DNA of 64,000 nucleotides from NCBI GenBank assembly GCA_965178125.1, contig OZ237754.1, positions 620,001-684,000 of the forward strand, given 5' to 3'. Shown piece after piece: positions 132 through 63,315 of the stretch. The stretch is from Bilabrum cf. latius (lineage: Eukaryota). The notes under the pieces are model-generated. The model did no database searches. It saw only the letters and a list, made by a program, of their open reading frames with translations, and was not told where the DNA came from. Every line of letters starts with the position of its first letter. The stretch's first letter is position 1. The translations under genes and the position numbers were made by a program.

Positions 132-974
132 TCACAGCACGTTCCACTTGCCGGTGCGGCGGTATATGCCGAGCACCTTGTGCGCCTATCGCCTGATGGC
201 CTTGTCCGAGTCGCGGTTGAACACCGACTCGAGCGTGTCAATCACTCTGCTCTCCAAGCGAGGAGGGGAACCGTCGCAGATGATGTGCAACACCCTGGAA
301 CGAATGGACGAGTCGTCGTCCTCGGCCAGGTCGAACACAGCGTCCCAGAACTCGGGCACGTCAAGCTTCACCTGGCAGGGGCACATGAGGTCCAAGGCCT
401 TGAGCCTCACCCGAGCATCCTTGCTCTTCGTCAGTGTGACGAGTGCGGACACGTCGCCGCACGACGTGGCCTCACCGATGGCATCCTTGGCCAGCCTGAA
501 CTTGTCAGTGAGGCGCATGGAGGTGGCCGCCGGGTCGTCGGGGGCGAGCATGAGATCGGCCATCCGGTCGGCGGGTGTCATGGGCTCGGCGGCAGCCTCG
601 AGCTTTGCCCTTCGCTTAGAGCGGACGGACTTGCCGCCACCCTTTGCCTCCTTACGCTTGGCTAGCCTGGCTCTGGCCTTGGCGCGAAGCATGGCCTTCT
701 CTCTCCTGACCTCTGGCTTGGCGGTGGCGAGAGCCTCAGCGGCAGCCTACTTCTCCTCAGAGGCGGTAGGTGCCAACTTCAAAGATGCCATCACGGCAGC
801 TTCCTTCAAAGAAGCATCATCAACCACAGAAATAGCCGGCGAGGCGTGAGGCGATCCACTCAAGTCAACAGAATCGATCAAAACCGTCCCATCAGTGTCT
901 GCTATTCTGTCGTCCTCTTTCCTGCTAACGACAGACATACCAGAAATCACGGAAGAAGTGCAAGGGATCTCCAT
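132..974 (-). CDS. HEAT/ARM-like repeat protein (CPCxVK...CDGSP...RTGKWNVL C-terminal domain)
   Basis: ORFs 747..974 and 186..692 share a frame and are separated only by TAG (747). Reading through TAG at 186 gives IRR(Q)AHKVLGIYRRTGKWNVL-TGA (132-134). HEAT-like helices: ARVRLKALDLM, SSIRSRVLHII, KAIRR. Confidence 0.7.
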
Positions 975-1451
975 ATTGTTATGTGTTGGTTGAACGCCTG
1001 AACAAGCCTAGCCTTTCCTCCTACTGGTGCTTGTTTGTGATTTCCTATCGTTCCCGTCGTGCCGTGCGTCCCGCAAACCGGAACACCCGCGACGTTTTCC
1101 GGTTTTGTGGTTTCCGCGTTCCTGGTGGGCATCTGCGAAAAGCTCACCCATGCAGCCACTCATGGATGCACTAAACGTTACGGAGACACGAGTATGCCCT
1201 TGTGCAGTCACCGAAGGACAGATTGTCGGCACACGATGCAGTGTTCCTGATGCACCGCCCTTGCCGTTGGAACCTGCCTTAGCTACTGTCCAGCCGCCAA
1301 TACACCCATGATGTGTGCCAGGCGTACGTGGGCCAATCGGGTCTCAGCAAAGCCAGGACAACAATTGTAACGGGAAAAAGAAGCAATTTACTGCAAGCTA
1401 AAGGCTAAGGCGTGTCATGCTCAGTCAAACGAGCCGCGGTGCCCCTGTTCC

Positions 1452-4400
1452 TCAGGACCCCCCGCTCCCCCAATACATGCCCCCACCAACACCGCCGTCT
1501 CCTTCCCTCCCCCTCCCGACCGCCACATCGCCATAACTTTCCCTGCCACCCGCACCGGCATGTACCCTGGCCCCTGCCGAGTGCTAAATCGGACCCCCCG
1601 CCCCCGCCCCGCTAGAGGGCCCCCCCATGCCCCTGCCCACGCCCCTGCCCTCCTCCTCATCATCATACATGTGCCCCCCGTGCACACGCTCCCCCTCGTC
1701 CCCGTGCGGATCGTACGCGCCATCTCCCCCGTCACCGTATCCACCGTACTACCCATATTCATCACCGCCCACGCCCCCTGCACCGTCCCCATCAAACCGC
1801 TCGCCGTCACCTCCACCCCGCGCGGCATCGATCGCCCTCTGCCTTGCCAGGTCGGCATCCGCCTCCAACGCGCCCACGTCCATGGCCACCATCTCGTGAG
1901 TTGCCCTCCCCAGCCTGTACCCCTGGCCCCCGCGCCCGCGCCCGTGCCCGTGCCCGTGCATGCCCGCTTCGCTGTCGTCGTCCTCGCTGTCTCCGTTGAT
2001 GTACGACGCCGCCACCATGGGGTCGCCCCTCGGGCCTGCTTGCCTCGAGACGGCGTCGCACCACTCCCGGTTGTGCGCCCTGAATCGATCCAGCTGTATG
2101 CGCCTCCACACATCCCCACGCCCGTCTGTCCGGTCGTACTGCAGTGCAATGCACAGAGCGTCGTCGGCGTTGGCGGCAAGGATATCGTGATCAGAATTCA
2201 GATACGCCCCGAGCCTGGCACAAGCATCTGTCTCGTACAGAAGCACGTTCCGGGCATCTTTCTGGTGCATGAGCCTGTACACAGCGGTGCAGGCCTGGTT
2301 GACAATCTCAGGGTCCTCCCCCTTGCTACCCAGCACCTCGGCTAGCAGCCCAGGCACGTGCGACTTGCCCAAATGCTTGGCGCCCTGCTTGTCGAGCGCC
2401 ATGGCTGACACGAACTGGGTCGCCTCCAGAAGGATGTCGTCGTCAGTGACACCGGGGGCCAGGTTGGATTCAAGCAGCTCCATCATGCGCGGCATGGCGG
2501 CAATGTCCCCCCACGACGTGGCAGAGGGCATGTCCCTGGGAGTTAGGTTCGACATGAGCCCGAACACCTCGACGAGAAGATCGGGGGATGACGTGCCGAG
2601 CAGGCGAACAAGGGCATGTACGTGGGGCTGCCACGTGTGCCGAAGTCTGTACGAGTAGCTCATGCCAGACTCACGCGACCAGTCCGGCTCGGTCTGCACT
2701 GCCACCGCACGCGCTTCACCTGCGTTTGCCCCTTCTGCCAGGGCTCCTTCGTACGCGCTCTTCTTAGCTTCTCTGTTCCGGTGAGCAGCGGCGGCCTCGG
2801 CTGCCCTGCACTGCACCTCCAGCGTGTACTGGCTGACGTTTCTAAGAATCTTGACGGTGGACGGGTCCTTGGTCGTGGTGGCGCGCTTGACCAGAGGGGC
2901 AACAAGCTCACGCCTGCAGAGATCAGCCGCTGCTGCCGGGTCCAAAGTCAGGTTAACGGCTGTGCCAGCCAGCTCGGCAGGCAGCTGCTGCTTAGGATAA
3001 TGCGTCACGAGCTGGATCACGATGTTGGTCGCCTCCGTCCGAGTGAACAGCCTCTTGGTCGGGTCATCCATGGACATGTGGTACATGAGTCGCAGGCTCC
3101 CTTGCCGGTACGCCTTCTCTCGCAGCAGCCGCGCGATCCTAGGCACCAGCGAGTGTGCGACCATCAGCCGGACCATCCTCACGTCGAAGGACAGAGCAAA
3201 CAGCAATCGGAGGGCGCTCTGCGCAAGGACCGTGTGCCCGCACGGCACGATCGCGGCAAGCCCGCGGATGACATCGTCCCCGTGCTGCAGAAACGCCTCA
3301 GAAAACTCCTCCACCAGCGCCAAGTTGCGCAGGAACGTCACCACGAGCAGCAGGAGCTCAGGGTTTGGTCTCTCCAGCAAGGGGGCAAGCAGCCCGATGA
3401 TGCCCCTCTTTACCATCTTCTCCTCGATCTAAGCATCGCTCGCCAGGTTCAATAGCACGTGAAAGCAGTAATAAAGCAGCCTCTCTTGCCGTCTGGTCAG
3501 CAGGGCAAATCGTCTTCGCTCCTTTGACAAGTCGACCCTGCCCTTGGGCAGCGACTTTAGCTTGATCTTGGGCCTGCTGCGCCCCCCCTCCTTGTCACCG
3601 GAGGAGGACTTGCCCGAGGACGATCGGCCCGACTTGCTCCCTTTCTTTCCTTTCTTCTTTCTGCCCGAGTTGCTCGCAGCCCCTTCATCTCCATCGCCAC
3701 CGTCTGCCCCATCGCCGCCCTCTGCCTCGGACACCTCCCTGCCCTCGTTGAAGGCCACTCTGAGCTCCTCGTCCTTTCTCCTAAACTCTGCCTCCGCCTC
3801 TGCGTCACCCCCTTTCTGCAGGCGGTACAGCTGCTCCTGCCTCTCCAAATCTCTGCTCCTTGCAGTGTACCTCTGGTTCTCGAGCTCTGCCACCTTCATG
3901 GCCACCTCGCCCACCCTCCTAGAAGTGAGTGCCCTGTGGAAGTCAGAGTAGTGGGAGATGCAGTATAGGATCTCCATGAGAGTCGTGGTTAGTTCCGTGT
4001 TCTTCTTGTACTCCTCCCTTGCCATGCGAGCCAGCGCGTCAAGCAGCACGTCATGGTCCACGATGGTGCCAAGGTGGTCAGAGTACCTCGCCAGCGAGAG
4101 GACCTTCAGTGCGGCCTGCGTCTTTGCGTCGATGTCCTCTTCGTACAGGTCCTCCATGTAGTCCTCGAGCTTTTCTATTCTAGTGCTCTCCTCGGCGCGG
4201 GTGACTTTTGACGTGTGCTTGGCGAGGTCAGCAGCGGCGGCCGCGTCAGGGGACAGGTCGAGCGGCTGGGGGCCCGTATCCTCAAGCGGTTGCAACTTCG
4301 GGCTGGAGGGGCGAGATCTATCCCGGTCCCTGTCCTTGCCCCGTGTCTGAGACCCGGAAGCGGGTCCCGCCCCGCCTCTGCTGCTGCCAGCGTGTTTACC

Positions 4401-5303
4401 ACTACCTCCGCCGGTGCTGGTGGCGCTCGGCCCCGGTGGTGGATCGGTCTTTCTGTGCGCCTTGCTGTGGCCATGGCTGGAATCGCCCGCCCGGCCTATC
4501 TGCTGGGGGGGCTGCTCGCTTCCCGAGGCTGGCGGGGCAGAGCCCCCGTGAGCATCTGCGGCGCGGGAGCGGCCGTGCCTCGCAGCACTCTGCGGTCTTG
4601 CCCTGCGGCTTGTTGTGCTAGCTGGGCCTTCGTGGGCATGGTGCCCGTTGCCTGAGTCTTCCGGGAGCTGCTCGCCTCTGGCAGCGGCCTGTGTTGCAGC
4701 AGCGGCCGATTTTCGAGTGGCTTCGCCAGCATCTGCAGATGCCAGCTGTAGCTCGCCAAGCAGCTCAATCACCTGATAGAATGGCAGAGATATGCACATC
4801 ATATAGCATCCGTTATCTGGAGCGCAACGTTCAAAGGCCCTAATCATCAGAATTCTACGAGCTCACCTTCGGCAGCCATTCGTCGGGAATGAGCTCTCCA
4901 CACTTCTGCACAATGTTCTCCCCCAAAATGGAGATGTCAGTGTCTTCCGACATCCCTTTCAATCTAACTCTGTGATACTCGTGGATAGAAGCTTTCGCGA
5001 TACGTGCGGTATCCGCTACCAGCTCGGCGTCCGTTGGACTAATGCAATTCGACACTCTCCGCCTTACCGTTTCTACTTCTGCTTTCTGATGGACGAGACA
5101 CGATGTCCATCGTCATCGAATACTTGGTTCTCTTGCTCATAAATAATGAGCAGAGCTTTCTCGGCAGGATCAACTGCAAGAAAGGGAGGCATGCTGTACT
5201 GTCCGGCAAGATTAGCGACGTGAACCATGCTGACTGCATGCGATCGGGCACGAGGGAAAGACTCACGTTTAACATCCTACGGATTAATGACTTTCTTCTC
5301 CAT
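1452..5303 (-). CDS. KIFAP3: Kinesin-associated protein 3 (kinesin-2/IFT accessory subunit); 4 exons, 5 in-frame TAG
   Basis: Motifs DPAEKALLIIYE, VRLKGMSEDTDI, LEDYMEDLYEED, RQERLLYYCFHVLLNLA, ELLLLVVTFLRNL, YHMSMDD. GT-AG introns at 5174-5266, 4970-5067 and 4773-4866. TAGs include 5073, 3429, 1749 and 1584. Stop is TGA at 1452-1454. Confidence 0.9.
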
Positions 5304-5816: not shown

Positions 5817-8800
5817 ATGTTGTAGATTTTGGCGCTGCTCGCTGCTCTGTGTGCTGCTAGCCAAGCAAGCGCAGCCCGCGATATTGGAAAGGAAGAATTA
5901 CAGGCGACAATTCGCTCCTTAGGGCTTGATGATCCGCATTCTGACAAAAAGGAGCACGCTGAGAGGTCATCTAGAGAGGCTGTTAGTGATGAAGAGCACG
6001 AAGATACGATGCCTCACCCGCTCGAACACGAAGACGAGCATCCCGAGGATATTGCGGCGAAGATGCACAATATGACGGCTCCAACGAAGGCGCACCGCAA
6101 GCATGCCCTAAAGCATTCACTTCGACACCCAGCAGGAGCCAGGGCGATTCGTGAGCGTTTGCAGGCGACATATTGCGAACCTGCAGGGACCGGGCGGCGC
6201 GACCACACGGCCGTTGTAAGCACTCGCGACATGCTCGACGATGCCTCGGAAGAGGGTCAGTTCCCGACCCATGCAACTACGGAGATTCAGATTGGCGTCG
6301 CAGACGCCCTTCGCTCCGCGCACGAGTCGGTTGTCGTCGGCGGTGTCAGCCTTGTGTTGGCCCAGACGCAGATCGTGTTCAGGCACGGCGACCGAGCAGG
6401 CATGGTGACCACCCCTGGCGCCAAGCCGGCCCGCTGGAACTGCACCATGCCGATTGAAAGCGACATGAATAAGGCCCGCATGTGGACGGCATCCGCCCAC
6501 GCCTCGCACCACCCCCACAAGATGCAGTCAGAGGAAGAGGGCGAGGCCGTCAACAGTGCAGTCATCTTCAAGAGGTATGCCGCGCTCTACAACGACGAAA
6601 TGTGCACGGAGCTCGGGCTGGTGGGACCCGCAAGGGCAGGGCCCCCGCTGCCCCCAGGGTGGGGGGATCCCCTGGGGGAATCCCTTGGGCAGACCGACAC
6701 GAGCAGCAGCGGGGGGGGGGAAACCACGGACGCATCATCGAGGCTGGCAGCGGGCGCGTCCGATGACTCGTGGCAGGACGGGGCAGCGGTGGCACAGGAC
6801 GGCACCATGCTGAGCGACCCCACCGCTCCCGTGGCGGGACCCCTCTCTGACCCTCCCACTGATCCCGACGACCAGCCGCCGGCGGCGCAGGCAGAGCTCA
6901 AGGACCCTGGCCAGAGGGCTGCTTCTCGCCTTATGCAGCAGCTCGGGTATCCCGTGGCAAAGCGGTGCGGTGCTGTGGCGGCGGGGCGCTCCCGCTCCAT
7001 CCCAGAGCCGGCAAGGCGCGGGCTCGAACCCGAGCACTACTTGGGCGACTGCGTGGCTGGCCAGCTGACCCCCCATGGGATGATGCAGGCGGTTGAGCTT
7101 GGCCATGCCCTGCGGCACAGCTACAACCCTTTGAACGGGGTGTTCGCCATGGGCGCCTCCTTCGTCGAGCCAGTGCATGTCTCCAAGCACTTGGCACGGC
7201 CGAAGGGAGGCACTGGAGGCGTGCGGTCAGGCGAAGAAATCGCAGAGAGGGAGAGGGCCCGTCGCGCCAAATCCGAGGAGCCCCAGACGATGCACCTCTA
7301 CCCGAACAAGCCGCTGTTGAGACATTGCTTCCACCCCGGGGAAGTGTTGCTGCAGTCCACCAACTTCGGGCGCACCGCGATGACCGTCGCCGGCGTGTCA
7401 CACGGAATGTACACAACCGACTGCCTCCATCCCAAGAACATCACCGGCGCTCCTGGGGGCCCCGAGCAGCAGGGCCACAAGGAGAGGCACATGGGACTCT
7501 CTGCATCTGCCAGTCGCCTGCTGTACGCGCTGTATCCGGAGAACGATGAGCATGAAGAGCAATTCGAGTTCGACTACAGCGAGGACCGCATCGCGTACAT
7601 CGGGGAGATGTCCGAGAAGCGAGAGATGGAGAGGAAGGCGCTCGGCCTGCCGCCCCTGACCGAGGACGAGGAGCTGGAGGCACAGCACCAGGACGCGGAG
7701 AAGTACTTCGGTGATCCCATGCTGCCATCCGCCAACAGGGAGGGCGACGCCTGGCTGGGCGACTACCCGAGCCGGTTCATCTCGGTCGTGCCCAGAACGG
7801 CTGACCCCTTGCTGCTTGCCAAGCACCACGAGCGTTGCCCTGCCGCGCAGGCCATCTCAGACGCGCTCGCCCATTCCCGCGGGGAGCTGCACAGACAGCA
7901 CGAGCCACCGCTGGCAGACGGTCTCCGTCGGATCGCCAAGCTCGGAAGGGTGCCCGAGGGAACGGCGCTCCGCGCGCACACGACCGAGCTTGCGGACGAC
8001 GTGATGACTCGCCTGTGCCACAACTACCCGCTCCCGTGCGCGCGCGGCTACAGCGATGGGCTGCCTAGGTCCCTGCAGCTGCGGCGCTCTCCCAAAAAGG
8101 CAGCTCAGCGGAGGGCCCTTGCCATGGCGGCTGACTACCCGTGCCTACGGAATGACGAGACCAAGGCGCTGCTGGAGCGAGCCAACCAGGCATACAGCGA
8201 CTACTACGACGGACCTGACACCGCCCTGCTGATGGAGCGTGCAGCCAGGGCCATGCTGAGGCAGGCGCAGAGGAGAGGCGCAGAGCTGCAGGCGAGAGCG
8301 GCGCTGGGTGCCGACAACGACGTGGAAGCAGCGAGCCGGCCCATTGGGCCACCTGCCGGTGACCTGGCTCGCGCACAGGAGAGGATGGAGCAGGAGGGCG
8401 AGGATCGTCGCACTGCCATGTATCTATCCGCTGACGGACCCATGGGTCCCGACGATCTCAAGGCGGCCGAGACGCTCGGCAAGGATCTGCTGGACCACTT
8501 TGACGGTGACTCGCTGCTTCGGAGGGTACGAAGAGGCTCGTCTCTCCCCCGCAATATGTCCGTTGAGGACGCCCGCTCCTGGCTCGGGCTCCGTGCGCCC
8601 CATGCAATGGTGGAGCACAAGGTCGGCAAAGCCAAGACAGACCTGCAGAAGCTCGCCAGCAAGGCACTCCCAGGCATCTACGTGCCCGAGGCCGTGCAGC
8701 CGCATGTGGTGCTGCGTGCTGCCCACGACACCGTCATCTACCCCCTGCTTTCTGCACTAGGGTACCACCCCGCAAAGCACCCTGGCTACCTCAGCAGGGT

Positions 8801-10025
8801 TACCATGGAGACGTGGCGAGCCGGGGCGGTCGTGCGCGGCAAGAAGGGCACAGGGAAGGGCACCTGGACCAAGGGGCGAGCTGACTTGAGGGCGGGCGAG
8901 GTCTACATCCGCGTGCTGTTCGACGGCGTGGACATCACCCCGCACCTGCCCTGTGCCAGAGACACTGCGCGCATCCTTCGCGCGCTCGGGTCTGCGGCTC
9001 GCGCAGAAGACAGCCGTGCTGAGTCGATCGCGATGGGTCACGATAACCACAGGGTGAATGGTCCCGGCATCCACGACGCGACCGTGCATCAGCTGGAGGA
9101 ATTCGGGCCCGATAGCCACGAGAGCGGGAGCCAGCAACAGCAGTAGCCCTTTGGTGGCCGGGACCTTGCCGCTGAAGATCCAGAGAACGTCGGTGAGATG
9201 CTGAATGCAGGCGCTGGCATGGGTGACGGCGAGCTCGGAATGAACGAGGACGACGAGGAGGATTTACAGGACGAGGAGGAGAGCGAGGACGAGGGTCCCT
9301 CTCTAGAGCGAATGAAGAGCAAGGCTGAGCGAGAGCTGCACGAGGTGCGCGAGAACGAGAAGCTCGCTTGGGCCAAGCACGTCACAGCCCATTCCACGCT
9401 TGCACGGCACTCTGAGTGGCCAAAGAGGAATGCGTCAGACGGCAAGCCCTTCGTTGCAAGCCCGAGGGAAGTCCTCGAGCGGCTGCAGAAGCTAAGCCGC
9501 CGTACCATGGCTGCGGCTGGCTTCTGCTTGGCGTCCACGCTCGAGGCGCACCTGGACAGGCAGCTGATGATCGGTGCCCTCGCGGCCGAAGAGGCCAAAG
9601 CAAAAGTCAGGCGCGCCCGGCTAGCCAAGGCCACGGGAAATCCCGTGGTTTCAGAGCCGCTGTCTTTCGCTGATGAGAGCGTCGGCCCAAATGAGTCCGT
9701 GGACGACCATCTGCAGGTTAGGCTGGAGAAGTCCAAGCACCGCCTCGCGAATCGCAGGGGCGACTGGTACGCTGCCTGCGGTCTGCACTCGCCCCCACTG
9801 GACGCCGCCGAGGAACTTGATGCAATTGCTACATCTAGAGTGTAGCCGATTGCCCTCGGTGGTGACCTTGACATTCGGGATGAGAGGACAGCTGCGATGC
9901 CGCCAGTGCACGGCCACCGCCTCGCAACCGCTCAACCACGAGAGCACCCTTCGTTCTCGATCCAACATGATGAGGACGGCATGGGCGCGGACGATGCTGG
10001 GTCGCTTGAAGAGGAAGGAGTATGA
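5817..10025 (+). CDS. Secreted/lumenal histidine acid phosphatase (branch-2 histidine phosphatase) with large insertions
   Basis: Motifs FRHGDR, GQLTPHGMMQAVELG, STNFGRTAMT and AAHDT. ATG 5817 gives signal peptide ML(Q)ILALLAALCAASQASA once TAG 5823 is read. Further TAGs at 9144 (in cag caa cag cag tag) and 9843. Stop is TGA at 10023-10025. Confidence 0.85.
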
Positions 10026-24305: not shown

Positions 24306-24376
24306 GGCCCGCTAGTATAGTGGTAAAACTTCACGTTGTCGCCGTGACGTCCCGGGTTCGATCCCCGGGCGGGTCG
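24306..24376 (+). tRNA. tRNA-Asp (anticodon GTC)
   Basis: Acceptor GGCCCGC/GCGGGTC, A-box TAGTATAGTGG, anticodon stem TCACG/CGTGA with loop TTGTCGC, T arm CCGGG-TTCGATC-CCCGG, discriminator G. One D-stem mismatch. Confidence 0.9.
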
Positions 24377-34760: not shown

Positions 34761-34782
34761 TCCCAATCTCTTTCTCTTCCTG

Positions 34783-46430: not shown

Positions 46431-46564
46431 CTTCTGACAGCTCGCTGAAATGAGCTGCATTTCAGAAGCGAGCACCATGCGATACTGGTCGCAACCAAAT
46501 CGAGGCTGGGCCAGCTGAATTTTGGTCGCACTGCAAGGAGCACAACGCAAGCTCGATATCGTAT

Positions 46565-50372: not shown

Positions 50373-53300
50373 ATGAACCAAGGTGGTCCCCATAGGTTCA
50401 TTGTGCGGGCCTTGGTCCTGGCAGGCTGCGTTGCATGCTGCGTTGAATGTGAGTTATTTATCATGCATTTTTTATGATTACTTTCAATTGCCCAAAAGAT
50501 CGCATGGAAGACCTACCACTCGCATTGATGACCAAACACTATCTCGCAGCACGACGTAGTTCAAGCTCCAATTTCGACGCCAGCCTATCTCCAGGAGATT
50601 TTTCCAGCTCGAAAACAGCAAGAAAGAATAGGAACAACAGTGGTTCACTCAATGGACTATTGCAGCGAGCTGCAGATCCAGCAGCAAGAGATGCAGTTGA
50701 GCAGCCGGCCGCGGGGGACGAGGATCCCAGCATTGTTGTGGTTCCAGTGGTTCTAGATAAACCAAAACCATCACCCGAGCCACTCATGACGGCACAAACT
50801 CATGCTGCTGTGAAAGCAGCCAGACTTGCCATCGATGCAGCCGAGACGGCGCAGCGCGTGGCCCGCCTTGCCATCGGGGAGGCCAACAGGGCCTACGCCA
50901 TCGACCAGCAATCCAAGGAGGACCAGAAAGCAGTGAATGGCGCCGTAGAGAAAGCCGAACAGTCCCGCGACGTCGCCATGGACGGCGTCGACTCGTCAGT
51001 AGTCCGCCTCAAGCGTGTAGAGGAGGAGGCAGCAGCGGCCCGCGCCCACGCGAGGGAGGCGCAGGAGGGACGCAGGGTGGCAGAACGCGCCTTTCAGCAG
51101 GAGAAAGACAGGGCTGCAGACACCGAGGCAGCAGCCCGAGAGGCCCGGTTCTACTTTGAGGAGGCCATGCAGCAGGCAGCCACCGCCGAATCCAGGGTGC
51201 ACTCCCTCGAAGTGGTTGCAACCAAGACCAGAGAGGCAGAGATGGAGGCGCAGGAGTTCGCCAGGCACGCTGGCCAAGACGCCGAGGGCGCCACCCGAGC
51301 CCGCCTGGATGCACAGGGGGAGGACGAGCGAGCGCAGGAGGCCAGCGACAGCGCCGAGCTGAGCGCCACCAGGGCCAGCGCGGAAGGCGCGCAGCTAGCC
51401 ACGGAGGAGATGCAAGACTCTGCAGCGAGTTCCAAGCGCGCGCACAAGTGGGCCGTAGAGGCCGGGGCGTCGTCCAAGCGCACTGCAGAGCTGGCCACCG
51501 AAGGCGGGCAGAGCGTCAAGATCGCGCAGGAGCACACACTCGTCACATAGACGTACGCGGACGAGACGGGCACAACTCAGCTGTCTGTCACCCAGCACGA
51601 GTCGATGGCCATCGCTGCCCGCGAGGAGGCGGGCGAGCACGCGGCCCGCTCCGAGACCGCCTCTGCTGTCTCCCAGGCGCACGAGGAGGCCGCCCAGGAG
51701 ACGAGGGACTCGGCTGTGGCTCTGTCGGAGCAGGCGGATGCTGACGCTGACTCCACCGAGCTGCGGCGGGAGCAGGCAAGGCACGACGCCATCGGGGCGG
51801 AGGGCCACAGCGCCAGCGCCAGCGAGTCTGCCACGAGCGCCCAGGAAGACGAGAGCGAAGCCACGTCCGCGGCCGAGACGGCGAGCAAGCACAAGGTGGG
51901 CGCTGGGGAGGAGAGCGAGTCCGCGGCGGAGGCACACCGCACTGCAGCGCAGCACGCGCAAGACGCGCAAGACGTCCTCCCAGACCTTGCAGCCACGGCA
52001 TCCTCGGCCAGCTCGGCCTCATCGAGCGCTGAGTCGGCGAAGAAGGAGGCAATCAGGCACGCAGGGGAGGCGCAATCGGCCCGCAAGGCATCCCATTCTG
52101 ACAAGGTAGCAACAGAGGCAGCAGAGCAAGAAGGAAAGAAGCACGCGGACACCGCCCGGCGGCATGCCCTGGCCTCCAACCACCATAGGGAGAAGGCTGA
52201 GATCGCTCACGGCCGCACGGTTGAGGTGCTGGATGCTGCGCTGGGCAATGCCAAGGACGCGGGCGATGGCATGGAGACCAGGGCGGAGGAGGCGCGGGCC
52301 AAGGCGAGGAGCAGCGAGGCCACGGCCAAGGAACACGCGCGAGAGGCAGGGTCTCTTGCGGACGAAGCCGCCGAGTCTGCCAAGAAAGCAGCCAGTGCCG
52401 CAGAGGAGGCAAAGCGGAACGCGCTCGCCACTGACAAGGGTGAAGACAAGGCAAAGACCGCTGCAGCTGCCGTTGGAGAACATAGGGGCAAGGCAGATAG
52501 CGGTCGTGAGGCCACGGAGAAAGCCCATGATGCGGCTCAGGTGGACAAGCAGGCCGCCGAGAAGAGCAAGGCAGCCGCGGAGGGACACCGGGATGCCAGC
52601 GCGGCATCGGCCGAGGCAGGGGCCACCAGCGCCCAGGCAGCCAAGGTGCAGTCCGCTGCAGCGTCCACGCATGCGGACGCGGCTGACGCGCAGGTCAAGC
52701 CCGTGCTCAGCAAGTCGGCCTCCACCACCACCGCCAGCACGCAGGCAGAGGAGCAGCACAGCTAGGCCAAGGCAGTTCGGGATCAGATCCAGACGCGGCT
52801 AGACGCGGCTCAGGCAGGTGCACAGAAGGCACTGGAGGCGGCCGAGACGCTGACCGAGTCAGTCAAGACAACCACCACTGCTGTCTAGCAATCGCAAGCT
52901 GCGGCAGACGCAGCAGCAGCAGCCGCCAAGAAGTCTGGATCCGGTGCCGAGGGGGCAAGGCTGAACGCAGTCCATGCGGCAGACGTGGCCAAGAAGACGG
53001 AGCCAGTCGCACAGGCCGCCGAGACGTCCAAGGCCCAGGCTGCCTCGCATGCTGGCAAGGCCAAGACCGCGCACAACCAGGCCAAGGCGATCGCCGATGA
53101 TGCCACCAAGACCCAGGCGGCCATCGGGGAAGTGGCCAAACAGGCCGAAGGCGCCAGGAACAGCGCCAAGGGGCACGCGGACGCGGCCCAGGCAGCCCGC
53201 ACCGAGGCCTAGAAGCGGCAGAATCAGGCGCAAAAGGACAAGTACAAGACCTGCAACATCCAGGTGGGCTTCGACCCGGGGCCGGGCAGGGACGTGAGGC

Positions 53301-53869
53301 GCGTGTTTACTCGGAATCCGTAGGCGTGCTGCATCGCGTGCCAGTATGAGAAGAGGTGCAAGTCGTTCGTGTGGATTCACAACCACCACTGCTGGCTGAA
53401 GTGGACAACGGACTCTAGGCACAGGAGGTGGCATGGCGCCCATGCCACGTGGATCTACGGCGGGTACAAGGTGTACAGCCCATCTCTGCTGCTGCAGTCC
53501 GAGGCGGGGGCTGGCGTGGAGTTGTCTGAGTCGGAGGGTGTGCGTGAGATGGCCGGGGGTGAGGGTGAGGCAGAGGGAGAGGGGGAGCTGTCGGACGAGG
53601 AGCTGATGGCGCTGGTGGACAAGAGGATGAAGGAGATGGAGGAGGAAGGCGTGGACATGGACGGGACGGAGTCCAGCGGGAAGGAAGGCAAGGCCGCAGG
53701 GGCTGCCGCCGTGTCGTTGCGCGGGAGTGGGGAGAAGCTCAGGCACCAGGGCCAGCCCATCCCCATGTCTTCGCAGGAGGAGGTGTTCGCCGCCATGGAC
53801 AGGTACGGGGTGAACCACAGCGAGCCTTGGGGGGGAGATGAGGCGTTGTACGAGTAGGATTTGTAGTGA
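50373..53869 (+). CDS. Secreted Ala/Glu-rich coiled-coil protein with C-terminal PAN/Apple-like domain, copy B (inverted paralogue)
   Basis: Signal peptide HRFIVRALVLAGCVACCVE and intron ~50449-50498. TAG at 51548, 52763, 52886, 53210, 53321, 53855 and 53864; TGA at 53867-53869. Long near-identical stretches with the reverse complement of 46565-49700. Confidence 0.8.
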
Positions 53870-54115
53870 ATAACTTCATTCGATTTCTCACGCTGGCGTT
53901 AGTCAATGAGGATTTTCGCTGCCCAACCGGCCGCCGGCGGCCGGTTCTAACCAACCGGCGGTGCAATGCATTCAAATATAATTCCCCCAGCATGTGCTGA
54001 ATGTATGCGGCAGATTGGCAAACGATTTTCACAGCGAAACCTAGTGTGTAGATCACTGACATTGCGCGCGTTCTCACGCACAAGGGCGATTAATTTGAAG
54101 AGAAATTTCAGAAGC

Positions 54116-57100
54116 ATGACTGAATCCCAGCCTCGCGTATATCGCGTTGCAATCACCGGAGGGCCTGCGGGCGGCAAGACCACGTGTTTCAGTGCACTAC
54201 AATCTGCACTGGAGGATGCTGGTGCATCTGTTTTCCGCGTTCCCGAGGGAGCGACGCTGATGCACGAAGGTGGGATGCGATGGGACGGCGTCGACACGTA
54301 GGCTGCGCTTCGAGCCTAGCTAAGCATCACGTCGTCGCAAGCCTCTCTGGAGGAATGCTTTCACCGGCTTGCGAGAGAGCGCGCGCGGATTTCGAACCGA
54401 CCTGCCGTGGTTTTGTCGGATAGAGGCCTGCAGGACGGAAGGGCATACTTGCCCGAAGAGTCTGCTCTAGAACGGCATCGATAGCAGGCCGAGGAGCGAG
54501 GGCAGTCATGGGAAGATGTTATGAATAGCTGGCTCGGTCCTCCCCCGCATGGGCACGGAAGCACGGCGGCATCGATCGCTGAGTCCTCAGCGGGTCTCGG
54601 GCCTGGCTCTCGCTCCATCCCCGCCCGGGGATCTGCCACCAGCCTTGCATCCATCGCCAGCACCACGTCGCTGGCATCCCAAGCTGGAGGAGCCGCATCC
54701 CACAACCCGCTGCAGACGTCTCTGTGGAATGCGATCCTAGAGAGATGCGCCGGGGCCGCCATCGACCGCGCGGCCATCAGCGCTCCCTCCGGGGTGACGA
54801 GTGCTGAGGATCCGGACGCCCCATCGGCCGGCCACGCCCAGGCCCAGCCCGCCTCTCTGCTGAGCGAGCGAGAGGTCAGGGATGCTCGGTACGACTGCGT
54901 GGTTCACCTGGTCACGGCTGCGGACGGCGCTGCGGAGTTTTACTCCACTGCCAACAACGCGGCAAGGCACGAGGACGCAGACGAGGCGCGCGCGGTGGAC
55001 CTGCGGATCAGGCAGGTGTGGCTCGGGTCACCCAACTTCGTGGTGGTGCACAACCCAAGGGGGAGCAGCAGGCAGCGCAGTGCGATGCAGGCCGGGGACC
55101 TCACGGCCGACCCTGGCGACCAGCCGGGCGGGGAACTGTCCGAGCAGATGCAGCAGACCGGCGCGCAGCAATTCCAGACGAAGCTGCGACGGGCAGTGGC
55201 CGCCGTCTGCCGTGCCTGCAACGTGGCCAGAGAGGAAGGGGGCTCGAAGCGGTTCTGGCTCAGCGGGGTCACGATGGGTAGGGCCTGGCAGCAGGCGCTC
55301 GCCGCACCCAAACCGGAAGAGGGTGCCGCAGCTGGTTCCGCAGACGCCCTGGAACGGCTTTGTTCCTCCCTTGGCTGCTCCACGGTACGTGCGTTCGTCA
55401 TTGTGCACACGTACGTGGAGGCACAGGACACAATCGAGGCAGCCAGCGGGGCGGAGGCGGGTATGGTGGGTGCTGCTGCCACGCTGGACAGGCGGCTCGA
55501 GGAACAGGCGGCGAGGGCGGGGCTTGGTGAACAAGGGGTCGATGTCGCAACGGGGGGTAGCACTAGGCCCACCCCCCTCAGGACAACTGTTCCTCTGGGG
55601 ACTGGGTGGTCCCTGGACGGCCTGGAGGGGAGGCCCTCTGCCGCTGCTGTGGATGCGACTGTGGGGGTCGCAGTGGAGGCAGGGGCCGGAGCAGTGCCAG
55701 CTGCAGGGGGGCAGGCCGGGTCACGAGGTGCTGGCTAGAGCTCTACTGCGGATGGCAGCGCGGGAGTGTCATTGTCAGTCGATGACGAAGGCATGGGCGG
55801 TCCTTTCGAGTACGAGTACAGGTGGGTGGTCGCTCGGCGGGTGCGGGTGTCTGCCAGGACAGAGGTGCCTCCCGCCGTGCTACTGGGTCTGGCCGCCAGG
55901 GATGAAGAAAGGAGGTCGCGGAGAACTAGCAGCAAGGCTGCTACGGCCGAGGAACAGGGCGGGGGTGTTGACACGGATATCGGTGCGGGTGCGGGTGCGG
56001 GTGTTTAGGAGCCGCGCCGGGGAACAAAGGTGTCCTCGGCGCACCAGGCCGCCGATAGGGTCCTCCGGAGCGCGCACGCCATGTCCATGGGTGCAGGCGC
56101 GAGCGACTGGTGGGTGGAGGAACACGAGGACGAGGAGGCGGAAGGAGGCAGCGGGGAGCGGGACGCTGAGAGCGAGTTCGGGCCGGGGGCGGGTTGGGGC
56201 GGGGCCAAGCCCTGGGGACCCTCCCGGGGGCACCTGTACGTCTGGAGGGAACACGCGTACAGGCAGTTGCAGGGACGCAGGAGGAGGAGGGGGGCTGCTG
56301 GCGGGGAGGGCGCTGCCGCTCCGGGCACGAGCGGCCCCCCCCCCGGTGCTTGGAGCGAGTGGCACCCGGCCTGGCTGGACCCAGCGTCTGAGAGGGAGCA
56401 GCAGCGGATCACGTCGCAGCGAGAGTACTTTCAGCTCGTGCGGATGGCAGACCGCAGGGAACAAATGCAGGTGCAGCTGGCACAGGCTGCAGCGGCGGGG
56501 CATGGGCATGGGCAGGGTGCCGCTGCAGCAGAGGGTTAGGCCGGCGGCGGCGGCGCCCCGTCGAGTGCAATCCCCAGCCCGGTAGGCGCAGTGGTGAAAG
56601 CTCGGCTGCTGTTCGAGACCGGCGCAGGCAGTGGAGACGCTGCTGCTGGGGGCTCCGGGGAGGACGACAAGAAGGCAGGCGCTGCAGGTGCCTCGGTGGG
56701 AACGAGGCGTGTGCTGGAATGGGACGAGGTGTTCTGGGGGAGGAGGGAGGTGGCGCTGGAGGCGGGGGAGAGGGGGCCCTTGGCCGCTGCTGCGAGGGCC
56801 TCTGTGCTGGCGGTGAGGTCGGGCACGAGGGAGGAGGAGAAGGAAGCGGAGTTTCCGGACAGCGGCGAGGATCCCGCGGGCGGGGATGGTGTCGGCCACC
56901 TGGGCCTGGGCCTGGGGCTTCCTCTGGGTCGGTTCGCCTCTGTGGAGTCGGAGCGAAGCACCGGTGCTGCGGACGAGAGCGCCATAGCGGCGGGTCTCGG
57001 ACTCGACATCGAAAGGGCGGGCCCGTCCCCCACGGAGGGGGACAAGACCCCCCCTCGCACAGGGGTCGGGGTTGCCCCCAGTGCGGGTATACCCAGGGAC

Positions 57101-57445
57101 CTGAGCGGGATCCCCATGTCTCCTGCGGTGCGATCCACGTCTATCCCCGCTCCCGGAAGCCCCCCTTTGCCGTCCTCTGGGGACCCCGGGGCGGTGGAGA
57201 GCGCCGGCCAGTGGACGCAGGCGCACGACGGCAGAGGCGAGGCGGGGTCGGGTCGTTCCTCCCCCGTCCCCATGTCGGGGTCAGCGGGGCGGGTTCCTTC
57301 CTGGCTGCCTGCCGTGCTGCAGCCGCAGAGCGAGGTAACCGGGGATCCTCGTTGGCTCAGCGAGGCGCTCGCAGGCGTGGATGTGGCCTCGATCGAGCCG
57401 CGCGGGGCCATCACTGTGGTGGCAGGCAGCGGAGCTGTGAAGTGA
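54116..57445 (+). CDS. TTD14/NadR-type P-loop (AAA_28) protein with a CYTH-like C-terminal part and large insertions
   Basis: Motifs VYRVAITGGPAGGKTT, VFRVPEGAT, VVLSDRGLQDGRAY, RYDCVVHLVTAADGAAEFYSTANNAARHE, EVTGDP. TAG at 54299, 54317, 54482, 55736, 56006 and 56537; TGA at 57443. Confidence 0.85.
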
Positions 57446-57886: not shown

Positions 57887-59253
57887 ATGGGGATATGCGG
57901 AAGCGTGCCAGAGGCACGAGACACGCTTGCAGCTGCGTCGCTCAGTCGCACGCAGTCAGTCATGGATGCTGCTTACGAAAAGAGCACAATTCAAGTGAGG
58001 CCGTGATCAGTGTAATATGATTATCACTAAATTCCTGTAATTGCCTCTGGATGCCTGCGAGGATTTGTGCTTGATCTCTTTTGCATGAGTTGATAGGTAG
58101 CGTTGTTGCACCCATGTGCCGATTCAGCAGTCGCGACATGCATGGAATTTCTAGATGGAAATGTTTTGCAGCACTATTCGTTTTGAATTGTATGCTTGTA
58201 CCGCATCAGTGGAAGGGCTTCCATGGTCTATGCGCAGTCGGCGACTAGTAGTTGCTGTTTCCGTTTTTTCTACTTGCCTCCACAACAGACGGGATTCACT
58301 GATGGTCATCACTGTGTCGCAACGCATGACCATAGAATTGCCAGCGAACGCGGGGCCTCGCTCCTCTACGGCGAGATTTTACCTCAAGGTGAGAGCTATC
58401 GCTCTGCGGAGACACCTTGCAGTGGTGCCACGCCCTGACAGCCGGGCACGCTTGCATGTCTCGCAAGGCATCACTATTTGTATTGTCCTACCGAATTATC
58501 GCAGGCGTGATGAAATTGCTTGATGACGACCACATGCGTGCTGGCCGCGCTGATGTGATGCTCGATCTGGGTTCTGGCACTGGCAAGGTCTGCATGCAAG
58601 CCTTTCTTACATACACGAACCTGACTCGAGTGGTTGGAATCGAATTATCCGCATCTAGATTTCAGTTGGGAGAATCCGCCTGCGTGAGGCTGGCATCCCA
58701 ATCGATGGGATACACGGTCGCCAAGCGAGTGCCGGGCGAGCTCATTGTGCTGGAGGCACCTGGGGTGACGGCGCGTAGATAGCTCGAGCTCAGGAAAGGG
58801 GACATGTGGTCCATGAGAGCAGCGGACATCGAAAAGGCGGACATACTGATCATGCATACCGACTTCACCCAGGCGAGCATCCCTCACTTCAAGAGGGTGC
58901 TAGGCGACATGCGGCGGGGCGCGCGCTTCGTGACATACCAGGATTTGCGGTCCTGCTGGCGGCGATCTGAACCGCCGTTCCAGCAGCTAGACAAGAACTT
59001 GGACGAGACAGATACGTTCCTGACGAGCTGGTCAGCCTCGAGGGGCCACCACTTGTACTGCTACGAGAAACACGTCGCGACTAGGAAGGGATACAGGCTT
59101 CACCCAGACGACGTGGAGGAAACCAAGGAGAACATGGGTAGGAAGAAGAGAGCGGATTCCTCCGAAGAGGAGGAGGGGCGGCCCTAGGGGGATGACTTGG
59201 AGGAGGGCGACCTCACGGATGACAGCGGCAGCGAGGAGGAGGGCGAGACATGA
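57887..59253 (+). CDS. DOT1-like class I SAM-dependent methyltransferase with N-terminal MGICGS acylation motif
   Basis: Motifs LLYGEILPQG, MLDLGSGTGKVCMQAF, VVGIELSASR, TSWS. Several 5' introns (e.g. ~58390-58505). TAG at 58780 and 59185; TGA at 59251-59253. 5' exon structure approximate. Confidence 0.7.
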
Positions 59254-59447: not shown

Positions 59448-61237
59448 TCACCTTCCTCCCCCAAGGCTGGGGTAGGCCCCATACGTGCCAGCCCCGCTAG
59501 CAGTCGGTGCACCATACGGTGGTGCGCCACCAGCCCCCCCTCCGTACACGCTCGAGCCGTACCCAGGAGGACCTGTGCCTGTTTGGCCACCCGAGGAGTA
59601 CCCAGGAGGACCCCCCGCCCTGCCACCTCCGCCATAGACAGGTGGCCCCTGACCCGCCGATGGCTGGCCCCTCCAGGCCCCCGGTGAGCCCCACTGGCCC
59701 GGCCCGGCCGAGGCACCGACCACTCCCGCGCCGCCTGTGCCGAACCCATGGGTGGCACCTGAGTTGTATCCAGGAGGACCCCCGCCGCTTTGTCCACCTG
59801 ACGAGTATCCGGGAGGAGCCCGGCCAGTTTGACCACCTGACGAATAGCCCGGAGGTCCTTGCCTTGTGGCAGGGCCCACCCCCGCCCCCGCCCCCGAGCC
59901 AGTGCCACTCCCGGACCCGCCGCCGGTGCGGCTGCCGCTGCCGGTCGCCGCTGAGGGCCCCGCACCACCCGCCGCTGGCGATGCCCAGCCAGCGCCGCTC
60001 GCCCCCGCGCCCCTGCCACCACCCCTGCCCCTGGCCGCCCCCATGGCCTTGGAAATGCGACCCACGAGCACCTTAGCCTCGAACTGCTTCTTCGCCCGAC
60101 GCCTCGCTTCGAAGGCGTACTCTGGCGCAGATATGCTGCCCTGCTCCAGAGCCTGCCGCAGGGCCTCCAAAACGTCCTCTGTTCCCTCAACGTGGGAGTG
60201 CAGCCGAAGCAGCTATGCTTGCAGGGGGCTCCCAGCCACCAGATCGGCATCCACGTCAAGCTCTTTGGCAGGAAGTGCAGCGGCCCTGGCTGCCTAGGCC
60301 TCCATGGCCGTCTCCAGACGAACTGCGTCCACCTGCATCTGCTAGTTTCTGGATTCTACCGCCCGCATGCGCCCCTCCAACTCCTGCATGTCCCTCACCC
60401 TGCGTTGTTCCCTGGCCTTGAGGTCGTCTTGCACCTTCTGCATGGATGTGATTTCTGCTATGAGACGGCGGGCCACACGGGTGAAGGCGTTCCGCAGCGC
60501 GGTGTTGGCGTTCTGACGGATGGCGGCTACACCAGAGGCGGCGCCGCCTGCAGCTGTACCAGTGCTGTGGCTTGCGACCGTGCTTGGCTGGCTCGGGCCG
60601 CTGCTTCCGTAGCCTGCACCGGAACCAAAGCTGGGCTGTGGCATCGGGGCTGCCCTGGCTTGCACCGGGGATTGCTGGCTGAAGCACGACTGCATGCTCT
60701 TGATACAGTCCTTGAGATTTGATCCTGGCTGCCACGTTTGCAAATACGGGATCTTGATGTTGCAGTCGGTGTCGACGAAGCGATGGCCTGGCGTAACCTG
60801 CATTTTCGTCGTGGGCCGCACATATCCTATCGGAGCCGTGATTGGATATCGTAGGGGCACGTACACTTCAACTGGAATATAATATTTAGAGCCCCTGTGC
60901 TAAATTTCAATGGTTCCGCCTAGTTTCAGCAGCTTCTCTGCACCCCACTGATCCGTCGAGGGGTCCAGCTGGTGGATGAGCTCGTCCGTGCTAGGTGCCA
61001 AGTACGGAGAAGCCTCTAGCGCCAAATCAACGTGCGATCGTGTGGTACCACTGTCCTGCGCAGCCAAATTGAAGTGCGAAGCAAAGTTGAGGGTCACTGC
61101 GAAGACTTGAGTTGGAGCCGCGCTTAAGAACAGCTTCGGCTTGGAGCACACGAGGGTCAGTGGCTCACAGCATACGGCAAACCGGATATAATTCGAACAG
61201 CTTCAGCCTTTCGCTACGGGAGATCTGGACGAGACAT
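59448..61237 (-). CDS. TSG101: ESCRT-I subunit Tsg101/Vps23 (UEV, coiled coil, SB domain) with a Gly/Pro/Tyr-rich C-terminal extension
   Basis: UEV motif LLKLGGTIEI(Q)HRGSKYYIPVEVYVPLRYPITAPIGYVRPT...IPYLQTW. SB box SPLQA(Q)LLRL...EDVLEALRQALEQGSI...RRRAKKQF. Intron 61056-61168; TAGs include 60900, 60342 and 60213; TGA at 59448. Confidence 0.88.
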
Positions 61238-61554
61238 TTTGCGGTGGGTAGCAGTTGCTTTTGACCATTTCCTCGACATCGCGGCACCGCGTGATGCGGG
61301 TATGTGTGACGAGTACATAATCCGGAGCAACAATCAATCAGTCACAAATCCTCTTCACTCGGATTATGGCACAGAGCAGCGACGCTGTCAAGAATCATGC
61401 AGGTCAAACTTATTCTGGTCCAAGAGAGTAGCCGTATGAGGTCCGAAAAGAGCGGTCTTTGAAGATTTATCGACCCTCGCGGCAACTAGGATCATCCCGC
61501 CCGAGTTTTTCTGGCTTCAGCGAGGGTAAAATCTCTAGCGATCATGCGGCTGCA

Positions 61555-62643
61555 ATGTCCATAGAATTCACAAGGAATGGTTACGTCGTTCTGCGAAATT
61601 TTCTTGACCCTGATCGCGCCCGTCTTGCCAAAAGCGAAGTGGATCGAATTGCAGCGACACTTGATCCGACTACCGTGAGCTTCGAGCCCGGGTTTACTCC
61701 GAACGACAGCGTGCCGGTCACAGAGAAATTAAAGCACATCCGAAAGCTTAGGCGGTTTGTGATAAATGACTTGTCAAGAGAACTATCGGCTATCGCGAGG
61801 GATGCGCTGTTGCTGCAGGCGGTTTCCGCTTGCCTATCGCACACACAGCCAAAGAAGGCCGAAGAAGCAGGTTCAGGTAGTACGCAGAAAGAACCAGTGC
61901 TATCACAGGATATCGCGCTGATCAAGAAACCCGGCGGTATCGAGAAGCCCCCTCACCAGGACTCGGCGTACTTCCTGCTGCGGCCGGGCATGGTGTGCGG
62001 TGCTTGGATCGCGCTAGAGCCCGCAGACAAGGAGAACGGCTGCATGCACGTCATACCTAGAAGCCACAAGCTAGGCCCGCGCCCGCACTACTGCGACCTG
62101 GACTGCATGCTACATGATGACGAGTGGCTCGCGGCGGCAGCATCCTCATCGGCAGAAGAGTCCAAGGAGAAGGAGGGCAAGGAAGGAGGCGAAGAGGGCA
62201 AGGAAGGACTAGGCAAGGAAGGAGGCGAAGAGGGCAAGGAAGGACTAGGCAAGGAAGGAGGCGAAGAGGGCAAGGAAGGACTAGGCAAGGAAGGAGGCGA
62301 AGCTGCCGATTCTCCGCCACTGGAAGGCATCGTGGAGGTAAAGCTGGACCCGGGGGACGTCCTCTTGTTCTCTGATCTGATCTTCCACGCCACGCCCCCG
62401 AACGATTCGGACCGTGGGCGCACTGCGCTGCAATTCCACTACAGGGCCCCATGGGCGGAGGAGATATCGCTGGAGGAGCACGGGAAGATCTTCCACGACG
62501 AGAGAGGGACGGCCAGCTGCATCACCACGAGGCCAATGAGTGACAGGCCGGCTTTATCCAACGTGGACGGCATCACTGCAAGCGGCGTGGGTGCCGCGGG
62601 CGCTGCTGAGGGGGGATGTGGGTCCGAGAATGCGCCCACTTGA
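61555..62643 (+). CDS. Phytanoyl-CoA dioxygenase (PhyH)-family Fe(II)/2-oxoglutarate dioxygenase
   Basis: Motifs FTRNGYVVLRNFL, KPPHQDSAY, AWIALEPADKENGCMHVIPRSHK, GDVLLFSDLIFHATPPNDSDRGRTAL. Confidence 0.9.
   Translation: MSIEFTRNGYVVLRNFLDPDRARLAKSEVDRIAATLDPTTVSFEPGFTPNDSVPVTEKLKHIRKLRRFVINDLSRELSAIARDALLLQAVSACLSHTQPKKAEEAGSGSTQKEPVLSQDIALIKKPGGIEKPPHQDSAYFLLRPGMVCGAWIALEPADKENGCMHVIPRSHKLGPRPHYCDLDCMLHDDEWLAAAASSSAEESKEKEGKEGGEEGKEGLGKEGGEEGKEGLGKEGGEEGKEGLGKEGGEAADSPPLEGIVEVKLDPGDVLLFSDLIFHATPPNDSDRGRTALQFHYRAPWAEEISLEEHGKIFHDERGTASCITTRPMSDRPALSNVDGITASGVGAAGAAEGGCGSENAPT
62176..62302 (+). repeat. 36-bp in-frame tandem repeat (GKEGGEEGKEGL) x~3.5 inside the PhyH gene
   Basis: ggcaaggaaggaggcgaagagggcaaggaaggacta repeated perfectly. 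Confidence 0.9.
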
Positions 62644-62795
62644 CGCAAGCGTGAGAGATTCAGTGGTGCAGAGCGGCGCGGTGAACGAGCGGGGGCGTAG
62701 TCGTACCACGTCTCAATTCTGTAAGTATGCTCGCGTGCGTGCGTGCGCATGCCAACTGGCGGAGTAACCTAGAGGACATCTTGGGCGAAACTCAT

Positions 62796-63315
62796 TCAGA
62801 AACCACCGCGAAGTGCCAGCACCATATGCACAGTGTTACCTCCTGCAACACCAGCTGCCTCCATACTCTACGAATCGTCCATCTTCTTGCCCTTGAAAAC
62901 CAATCGGATCTGCTTCGCATCAATCCCCTCCTTCTCCTGCAGGCTCAACTTCAGCTCTTGCATCGTTGTCGTTCCCTCCACCTCCATAGGTGACTTACGT
63001 CCAGACAGAGTCTGCGAAGCCATTGAATACATGAGGGCGTGACGGTGGAGTGGCGTTCTGGCACTGCTCAAAATGCAACAACTTGGAAGCAAAGAGACTG
63101 CCACGAAGGGCCCTGGAGATTCAGGTGAAGACTAAACTGAAACTGGTCGAGTCGATGTGGTGTCATTGTTAGTTTCACGATATCAACCAGGTTTGCGCAA
63201 CGCGAGAACGCATCAAGGCCATGGCCTGTTGCTCTATTGAGCGATTAGCTTGTTCTTTTAAACGGACCATTGGTAGTTCACTGCATTTAATTCTTACCTT
63301 TACAAAAATCTGCAT
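62796..63315 (-). CDS. NEDD8: NEDD8/Rub1-like ubiquitin-like modifier
   Basis: Exon 1 MQIFVK (63298-63315), intron 63012-63297, exon 2 TLSGRK...LQEKEGIDAKQIRLVFKGKKMDDS(Q)SMEAAGVAGGNTVHMVLALRGGF-TGA. LALRGG (Ala72) is NEDD8-type. TAG at 62868. Confidence 0.8.

Follow-up and report, generated by a model that had tools for sequence, protein, structure and literature searches.

Evidence for UAG as a glutamine codon, beside UGA and UAA stops, in a 64-kb stretch of eukaryotic nuclear DNA

Nuclear genetic codes that give UAG and UAA different meanings are rare. A list of such decoupled codes from 2024 names a rhizarian, Iotanema, Scotinosphaera, Protocruzia, several phyllopharyngeans, and one oligohymenophorean (PMC11687900). 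Iotanema spirale (Metamonada, Fornicata) translates UAG as glutamine (Gln) and keeps UAA and UGA as stops, UAA being the primary one (PMC5304391). Among the ciliates described in PMC11687900, UAG alone is read as Gln in Protocruzia tuzeti and in two phyllopharyngean lineages, and as Leu in another phyllopharyngean. Other meanings given to UAG separately from UAA are Leu in the rhizarian exLh, Ser in Scotinosphaera, and Glu in the ciliate PL0344, where UAA is Lys (PMC11687900, PMC5304391). Codes in which UAG and UAA both specify Gln (UAR = Gln, NCBI table 6) occur in many ciliates, hexamitin diplomonads, Ulvophyceae, Streblomastix, and Amoeboaphelidium (PMC11687900), and recoding of TAG to Gln (code 15) is described for crAss-like and other phages (PMC9523058). 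Here we analyze the code used in 64 kb of contig OZ237754.1 (positions 620,001 to 684,000; this whole stretch is called the window). The window is very probably nuclear DNA of an aerobic, flagellated, intron-poor eukaryote, rich in guanine and cytosine (GC), in which UAG is Gln and in which UGA, the main stop, and UAA terminate translation.

The codon table is the same as NCBI code 15 and is in itself already known, from Iotanema, Protocruzia, and phyllopharyngean ciliates (PMC11687900). As in Iotanema, UAG alone has passed to Gln and no longer shares its meaning with UAA; the two differ in that UAA is the main stop of Iotanema, whereas TGA ends 20 of the 22 genes of the window. Protocruzia and the phyllopharyngeans likewise have UAG reassigned and UAA kept as a stop. 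The UAR = Gln codes also turn a former stop into a Gln codon, presumably through a mutated tRNA-Gln, but TAA is a sense codon there and not here. Phage code 15 is an identical table but is that of phage genomes, whereas the genes of the window are eukaryotic and nuclear, and spliceosomal introns occur in them.

That UAG is a sense codon, and the only former stop to be one, is seen from the lengths of the reading frames when each stop is opened in turn. The GC content of the window is 61% throughout. Under the standard or the bacterial set of stops a single frame reaches 1000 amino acids or more, and the number is one with TAA as sense, two with TGA as sense, and nine with TAG as sense, when the longest frame attains 2625 codons. 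Within this one 64-kb window there is thus no gain in open reading frame (ORF) length from opening TAA or TGA, and both remain stops. On the two strands together the triplets number 1665 (TGA), 816 (TAG), and 363 (TAA). Gene models were drawn as frames open between TAA or TGA, which makes the lack of these triplets inside them true by construction; for this reason the evidential weight lies with the frame lengths and the control codes. A first set of 18 models, with TAG as sense, has 84 in-frame TAG among 16,688 codons and ends in 16 TGA and 2 TAA. Four models were added later (a DOT1-like gene, a ubiquitin/NEDD8-like gene, the 3′ end of an MnmE gene, and a coiled-coil gene) and the Hsp70 gene was amended for an intron. 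The enlarged set of 22 models has 87 in-frame TAG among 17,407 codons, and exon 1 of the Hsp70 gene contributes 2 further ones (89 in total); at least one TAG is present in 20 of the 22 models, and the ends are 20 TGA and 2 TAA. A sequence-only reading of the window had counted more than 80 in-frame TAG in 19 genes and 21 gene ends (19 TGA, 2 TAA), and had concluded that UAA and UGA remain stops, all of which agrees with the larger set. Its further observation, that internal TAA and TGA are missing, is also true, but as a product of how models are built, and is best read beside the off-frame frequencies within the same genes, which are 2.3 (TAA) and 18.9 (TGA) per 1000, compared with zero in frame. 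TAG, on the other hand, occurs about equally in frame (5.0 per 1000 codons) and off frame (6.1), so that there is no sign of selection against it in coding frames. Several Pfam domains run on across TAG codons, namely KAP, UCH, UEV with Vps23_core, AAA_28, PAN, DUF3712, and ubiquitin. The families found in the TAG-bearing frames and other genes of the window are KAP, UCH, HSP70, UEV with Vps23_core, WD40, PKD_channel, PhyH, PAN, DUF3712, ubiquitin, and MnmE_helical.

A UAR = Gln code was considered and rejected. There is no in-frame TAA in the 17,407 codons, and two genes end in TAA. In the first 18 models, Gln is encoded by CAA and CAG in a ratio of 119:482, beside 84 TAG; from these numbers, a TAA that likewise meant Gln should occur in frame some 20 times, and none is observed.

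A dual role of UAG, as Gln inside genes and as a context-dependent stop at the end of some, is improbable. Ambiguous stop/sense codons do exist elsewhere (UAG in Condylostoma and karyorelict ciliates, UAA in Blastocrithidia), and three observations weigh on this side: the way in which the gene models were drawn leaves no room for one that ends in TAG, the TGA of both PAN1 and PAN2 comes directly after a TAG, and the ubiquitin-specific protease (USP) has three TAG in its last 28 codons. Against it, all 22 models run to a TGA or TAA and none needs a TAG stop. Natural C-termini are reached at the first TGA in the MnmE gene (FCMGK) and in the ubiquitin-like gene (LRGG followed by F); MnmE proteins end in a C-terminal C-x-G-K motif. 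The similar frequencies of TAG in and off frame also suggest that it is not counter-selected, and the KAP3 gene of a close relative (the metagenome contig L001, described below) ends in TGA as well.

The sequence-only reading had proposed to look for unedited, unspliced UAG in RNA. A search of runs gave four near-complete DNA runs under one organism label and three further runs, none of those listed being recorded as RNA, and contigs of runs X1, X5, X6, and X7 were compared with positions 37001–50000 of the window. X5 to X7 come from two other studies and contain 57–63% of the words of the window. The DNA run X1 has a flat depth of 24–55. In X5 to X7 the depth varies from 0 to about 800 across neighboring genes, being 0 over 45.7–46.5 kb and several hundred over Hsp70 and PAN1; uncovered parts (e.g., 44.8–46.5 kb) were not counted as evidence. 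In all three, position 41424 is joined to 41582, so that a segment of 157 bases bounded by GT and AG is missing, and the joint is absent from X1. From this splice joint and the uneven depth, our guess is that X5 to X7 are RNA. This nature is only guessed, X5 being labeled "RNA? (probably DNA)", and the comparison was made with assembled contigs and not raw reads, which counts against our interpretation. The joint moves the start of the Hsp70 gene upstream, to an ATG at 41119, and the TPR repeats of exon 1 continue into exon 2. The three TAG of this gene (41185, 41197, and 41684) are all covered by contigs with no differences, and a single contig of X5, the only run to have one, retains all six TAG of the PKD channel gene (37587–40978, colinear with the genome, no differences). 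Nine TAG are thus kept in RNA-like contigs with zero differences. Contigs of X6 and X7 span three TAG of PAN1 with 39 differences to the window, and none of the 35 that are listed falls on a TAG. These differences cluster in two blocks (47285–48032), where X1 agrees with the window; either transcripts of another allele or copy were assembled, or the contig is a hybrid of PAN1 and PAN2.

The TAG codons are neither spliced out nor edited, and the assemblies of three studies agree on them. It is therefore extremely improbable that the code is unchanged and that the TAG reflect assembly or consensus errors, overlooked introns, RNA editing, or pseudogenes. Introns do occur in the window, and contigs were compared instead of raw reads, both of which leave such artifacts some room. 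But contigs of one DNA run and RNA-like contigs from two other studies match at the TAG without a difference, including the colinear PKD contig with its six TAG; frames open up to 2585 codons with TAG alone and never with TAA or TGA; and the independent metagenome contig of a relative has TAG of its own at other Gln positions. In the 22 genes one intron was seen (157 nt, in Hsp70) and one inferred (about 286 nt, in the ubiquitin-like gene), both with GT..AG ends. Four other joints (38760–39985, 38887–44422, 43161–48172, and 49336–49503) were rejected as introns, having short sides or being present in the DNA run too. The first three are treated as repeats or assembly differences. The fourth lies within PAN1, where contigs from each of the four runs, X1 among them, lack 166 bases and the flanking matches are short (30 letters); it is probably also a repeat or an assembly difference and not an intron.

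The residue inserted at UAG was assessed in two ways. In a test similar to that of Codetta, Pfam matches were re-scored with TAG taken as X, Q, E, K, L, S, Y, W, R, or A, over nine families and about 13 TAG inside the matched stretches. The summed gain over X is largest for Q (+13.5 bits), followed by E and K (+8.4 each), R (+7.6), A (+4.9), S (+4.1), Y (−0.4), W (−2.7), and L (−2.9). The clearest column is at TAG 313 of TSG101, in Vps23_core, where Q gains 4.5 bits and the next residue, K, 1.0; in the ubiquitin column Q gains 2.3 bits and K 1.6. The codes of exLh, Scotinosphaera, and PL0344 resemble the window in having UAG decoupled from UAA, but the residues they assign to it are disfavored here (Leu −2.9, Ser +4.1, and Glu +8.4, against +13.5 bits for Gln).

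The second line of evidence is the comparison with close relatives, represented by ORF fragments from metagenome and Logan assemblies that were obtained in an exhaustive search with KAP3 and a search for shorter USP proteins. These fragments are 69–92% identical to the window proteins. TAG 473 of KAP3 stands opposite Q in one of them (P0286), and TAG 1987, 2114, and 2308 of USP stand opposite Q in relatives. A scan of metagenomes gave 375 pattern matches, among which the sole confirmed locus is L001, a contig of 2123 nt and 60.6% GC. The KAP3 frame of L001 runs through 669 codons to a TGA and has four in-frame TAG of its own, which in the window correspond to CAA, CAG, CAG, and GCG; conversely, TAG 1088 of the window KAP3 is CAG in L001. 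Altogether, 8 of the 11 columns that set TAG against a sense codon of a close relative are Gln, the other three being D, A, and Y, and Glu, Lys, Ser, and Leu never appear. Overall, the pair is identical at a similar rate (457/623), and since Gln makes up about 4% of codons the result cannot be due to chance. The claim of the sequence-only reading that UAG is Gln is therefore upheld by both approaches. In other comparisons, TAG 142 of the zinc-finger gene ZnF1 is CAG in its paralog ZnF2, and among the five Hsp70 sequences that most resemble the window around the TAG of exon 2, four have Q at that site.

Several results weigh against Gln. Q is the top residue in just three of the nine Pfam families; E leads in AAA_28, PAN_4 (+2.6, compared with +1.5 for Q), and DUF3712, K leads in KAP (+2.6, compared with +1.2) and UCH, and W leads in HEAT_2 with a gain of 5.7 bits, in a match that is below the family cutoff and whose alignment shifts with the residue. 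The scoring covered 9 of the 20 residues. The three close-relative columns that are not Gln are USP 2142 (D), the GCG column of L001 (Ala), and KAP3 1033, which is opposite TAT (Y) in L001 in a gap-rich stretch of low complexity, beside a Q. In paralogs, the partners of TAG are GAG, AAA, TCA, AAC, AAG, and CAG, so that only one of six informative columns is Gln. Distant homologs at KAP3 473 show E, E, D, H, and S, and the Hsp70-TPR column is variable (14 T, 5 A, 4 V, 4 L, 4 Q, and others, among the 35 aligned of 120 listed matches). Some columns are variable or carry no information: all three Hsp70-TPR TAG columns are variable (alignments of 35 and 48 sequences), TAG 84 of TSG101 is opposite Pro of human TSG101 (from a PDB search) in a variable column, and a word-based search with KAP3 gave two matches of 30–34% identity, with H and S opposite codon 473. 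One might conclude from such data that UAG is a sense codon for another residue, such as Glu, Lys, Ser, or Leu, as in PL0344, Scotinosphaera, and exLh. The E or K that leads in five of nine families, with small margins, the E, K, K, S, and N of the paralogs, and the E, E, and D of distant KAP3 proteins would fit this. It is nevertheless very improbable, because the summed Pfam score puts Q ahead of E and K by 5.1 bits, of S by 9.4, and of L by 16.4, and because the close relatives give 8 Gln in 11 columns and not one of these four residues. UAG is translated, as Gln; this core result draws together three independent lines, namely the ORF statistics with control codes, the unedited TAG of the RNA-like contigs, and the inference of the residue.

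Decoding of UAG would be carried out by a cognate tRNA-Gln with anticodon CUA, and eRF1 would have lost the recognition of UAG and retained that of UAA and UGA. UAA can stay a stop in such a system because C34 of the CUA anticodon pairs only with G. In PMC11687900 it is argued that a tRNA with anticodon CUA is not expected to read UAA, so that UAG can evolve alone. No tRNA with a CUA anticodon was detected in the 64-kb window, and eRF1 is not among its genes.

TAG and CAG or CAA interchange between the organism of the window and a sister species that shares the trait. At least one such environmental species, with proteins 73–92% identical, uses UAG = Gln, its TAG being partly at the same sites and partly at other Gln sites. 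With the trait common to both, the change of code would be older than their divergence, and TAG and CAG would since have been exchanged as synonyms. Traces of the trait are also visible in how the genes of relatives were called. Two USP fragments on contigs of 3913 nt (probably one contig) terminate exactly at TAG 1987 and TAG 2494 of the window, and other fragments stop just before a Gln of the window. The public protein fragments P0208, P0228, P0141, P0282, and P0284 each extend from the first Met that follows one TAG to the next TAG. The nearest deeper KAP3 relatives (36–40% identity) are called as single uninterrupted ORFs of 886–1216 amino acids. This hints that they may lack in-frame stops, which would date the change to a narrow and recent clade.

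The lineage itself can be described from its genes. KAP3 and the polycystin channel point to a cilium. The MnmE/GTPBP3-type protein and the oxygen-dependent PhyH dioxygenase point to aerobic metabolism and to a mitochondrion that carries out translation of its own. Fornicata of the Iotanema lineage are anaerobes whose mitochondrion-related organelle is reduced and lacks a genome. By this description the window, which encodes an MnmE/GTPBP3-type protein and PhyH, is set apart from the anaerobic fornicate Iotanema, and membership of Fornicata was rejected on the indirect argument of the MnmE_helical match with its C-terminal FCMGK and of the PhyH dioxygenase. The ciliates of PMC11687900 have GC contents of up to 53.6%. 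The window has 61% GC, 22 genes on both strands of one 64-kb contig, and introns of 157 and about 286 nt, and ciliate affinity was judged on these traits alone. The MnmE and PhyH genes, the GC content, and the multigene contig together argue against Iotanema and ciliates. Among named sequences, the fusion of TPR and Hsp70 is found in oomycetes and Paulinella micropora (51–53% identity); it may be a lineage marker, and from it the lineage may lie within or near the SAR group (stramenopiles, alveolates, and rhizarians). Its N-terminal TPR domain is similar to that of Hop/Sti1 and is encoded across the intron. In a quick tree of Hsp70 the branch of the window is long (0.85) and no sister to it is supported, which gives no placement. 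The nearest named KAP3 is that of Telonema subtile (34%), and all closer KAP3 matches are environmental (metagenome or Logan).

The UAG = Gln code found here probably belongs to a newly recognized lineage. No report of a GC-rich organism with UAG = Gln outside ciliates and fornicates was found among open-access papers and bioRxiv. There is about an even chance that the window represents an unreported and independent origin of a code in which only UAG passed to Gln, shared by a small clade of aerobic flagellates that are rich in GC, poor in introns, and neither ciliates nor fornicates. A further lineage would be one more independent case from which to learn how UAG, but not UAA, escapes eRF1. 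For this one there are RNA data and a genome assembly, an environmental sister species shows the trait, and deeper relatives seem to be without it. At high GC, TAA becomes scarce and TGA dominates among the stops, which bears on the question of whether GC pressure favors the capture of UAG. In practical terms, annotation of this genome or of its relatives with the standard code will be shattered, and genes of relatives are already public as fragments cut at TAG. Such TAG-bounded fragments in public collections are a signature that could be mined for further members of the clade.

The features of the window are given in Table 1.

Table 1. Genes and exons of the window, in window coordinates (aa, amino acids; TAG, number of in-frame TAG codons or their positions)
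Feature	Position	Strand	Length	Pfam	TAG	End	Remarks
HEAT-repeat ORF	132..1232	-			3	TGA	start uncertain (GTG in ORF list)
KAP3 (Kinesin-associated protein 3)	1452..4847	-	1131 aa	KAP, 9.4e-95	codons 473, 1033, 1088	TGA	
Histidine phosphatase (branch 2) protein	5817..10025	+	1402 aa		3	TGA	
Giant ubiquitin-specific protease (USP)	10314..18071	-	2585 aa	UCH	19	TGA	
Membrane-protein-like ORF	18585..19694	+ (uncertain)	369 aa		2	TGA	
DUF3712/Tag1-like protein	20510..23722	+	1070 aa		2	TGA	
tRNA-Asp(GTC)	24305..24377	+					sole RNA gene detected in the window
WD40 protein	24488..28657	-	1389 aa		7	TAA	
Coiled-coil ORF	30493..31152	+	219 aa		none	TGA	
ZnF1, C2H2 zinc-finger array	31749..33293	-	514 aa		4	TGA	
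Repeat protein	34340..35422	-	360 aa		6	TGA	5 TAG share one position in a 19-aa repeat
ZnF2, C2H2 zinc-finger array	35814..36992	-	392 aa		1	TGA	
Polycystin-type channel protein	37436..41047	-	1203 aa	PKD_channel	6	TGA	
TPR-Hsp70 fusion gene	41119..43696	+		HSP70, 1.9e-210	positions 41185, 41197, 41684	TAA	
TPR-Hsp70, exon 1	41119-41424	+					
TPR-Hsp70, intron	41425-41581	+					GT..AG; splice joint in contigs
TPR-Hsp70, exon 2	41582-43696	+					
Protein of no assigned family	44115..46478	-	787 aa		4	TGA	
PAN1, coiled-coil and PAN-domain protein	46565..49906	-	1113 aa		5	TGA	one TAG is the last codon before TGA
PAN2, inverted paralog of PAN1	50474..53869	+	1131 aa		7	TGA	
AAA_28 NTPase-domain protein	53966..57445	+	1159 aa		6	TGA	
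DOT1-like methyltransferase ORF	58459..59253	+			2	TGA	start uncertain
TSG101/Vps23 (UEV and Vps23 core)	59448..61151	-			4	TGA	start uncertain
Phytanoyl-CoA dioxygenase family protein (PhyH)	61366..62643	+	425 aa		1	TGA	
Ubiquitin/NEDD8-like gene	62796..63315	-		ubiquitin, 7e-17	1 (exon 2)	TGA	TGA after LRGGF
Ubiquitin/NEDD8-like, exon 1	63298-63315	-					MQIFVK; exons inferred from frames, not RNA
Ubiquitin/NEDD8-like, intron	63012-63297	-					
Ubiquitin/NEDD8-like, exon 2	62796-63011	-					
MnmE/GTPBP3-type gene, 3′ end	63449..64000	-			none	TGA	TGA directly after C-terminal FCMGK

The membrane-protein-like ORF has no match to a Pfam family, and an ORF of similar length lies antisense to it, which makes its strand uncertain. 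At many other loci, long antisense or off-frame ORFs overlap the true genes (for example at 6287–8095 on the reverse strand and 15094–16743 on the forward strand). Such ORFs are expected at 61% GC when TAG is open and are not to be annotated as genes. Two pairs of paralogs lie close together. The N-termini of ZnF1 and ZnF2 are almost the same (339 of 390 aligned residues identical), and the repeat protein sits between the two genes. PAN1 and PAN2 are arranged head to head and share 945 of 1109 aligned residues, long identical stretches alternating with short, strongly divergent blocks, a pattern that looks like patchy gene conversion. Four of their TAG are common to both genes and four are private.

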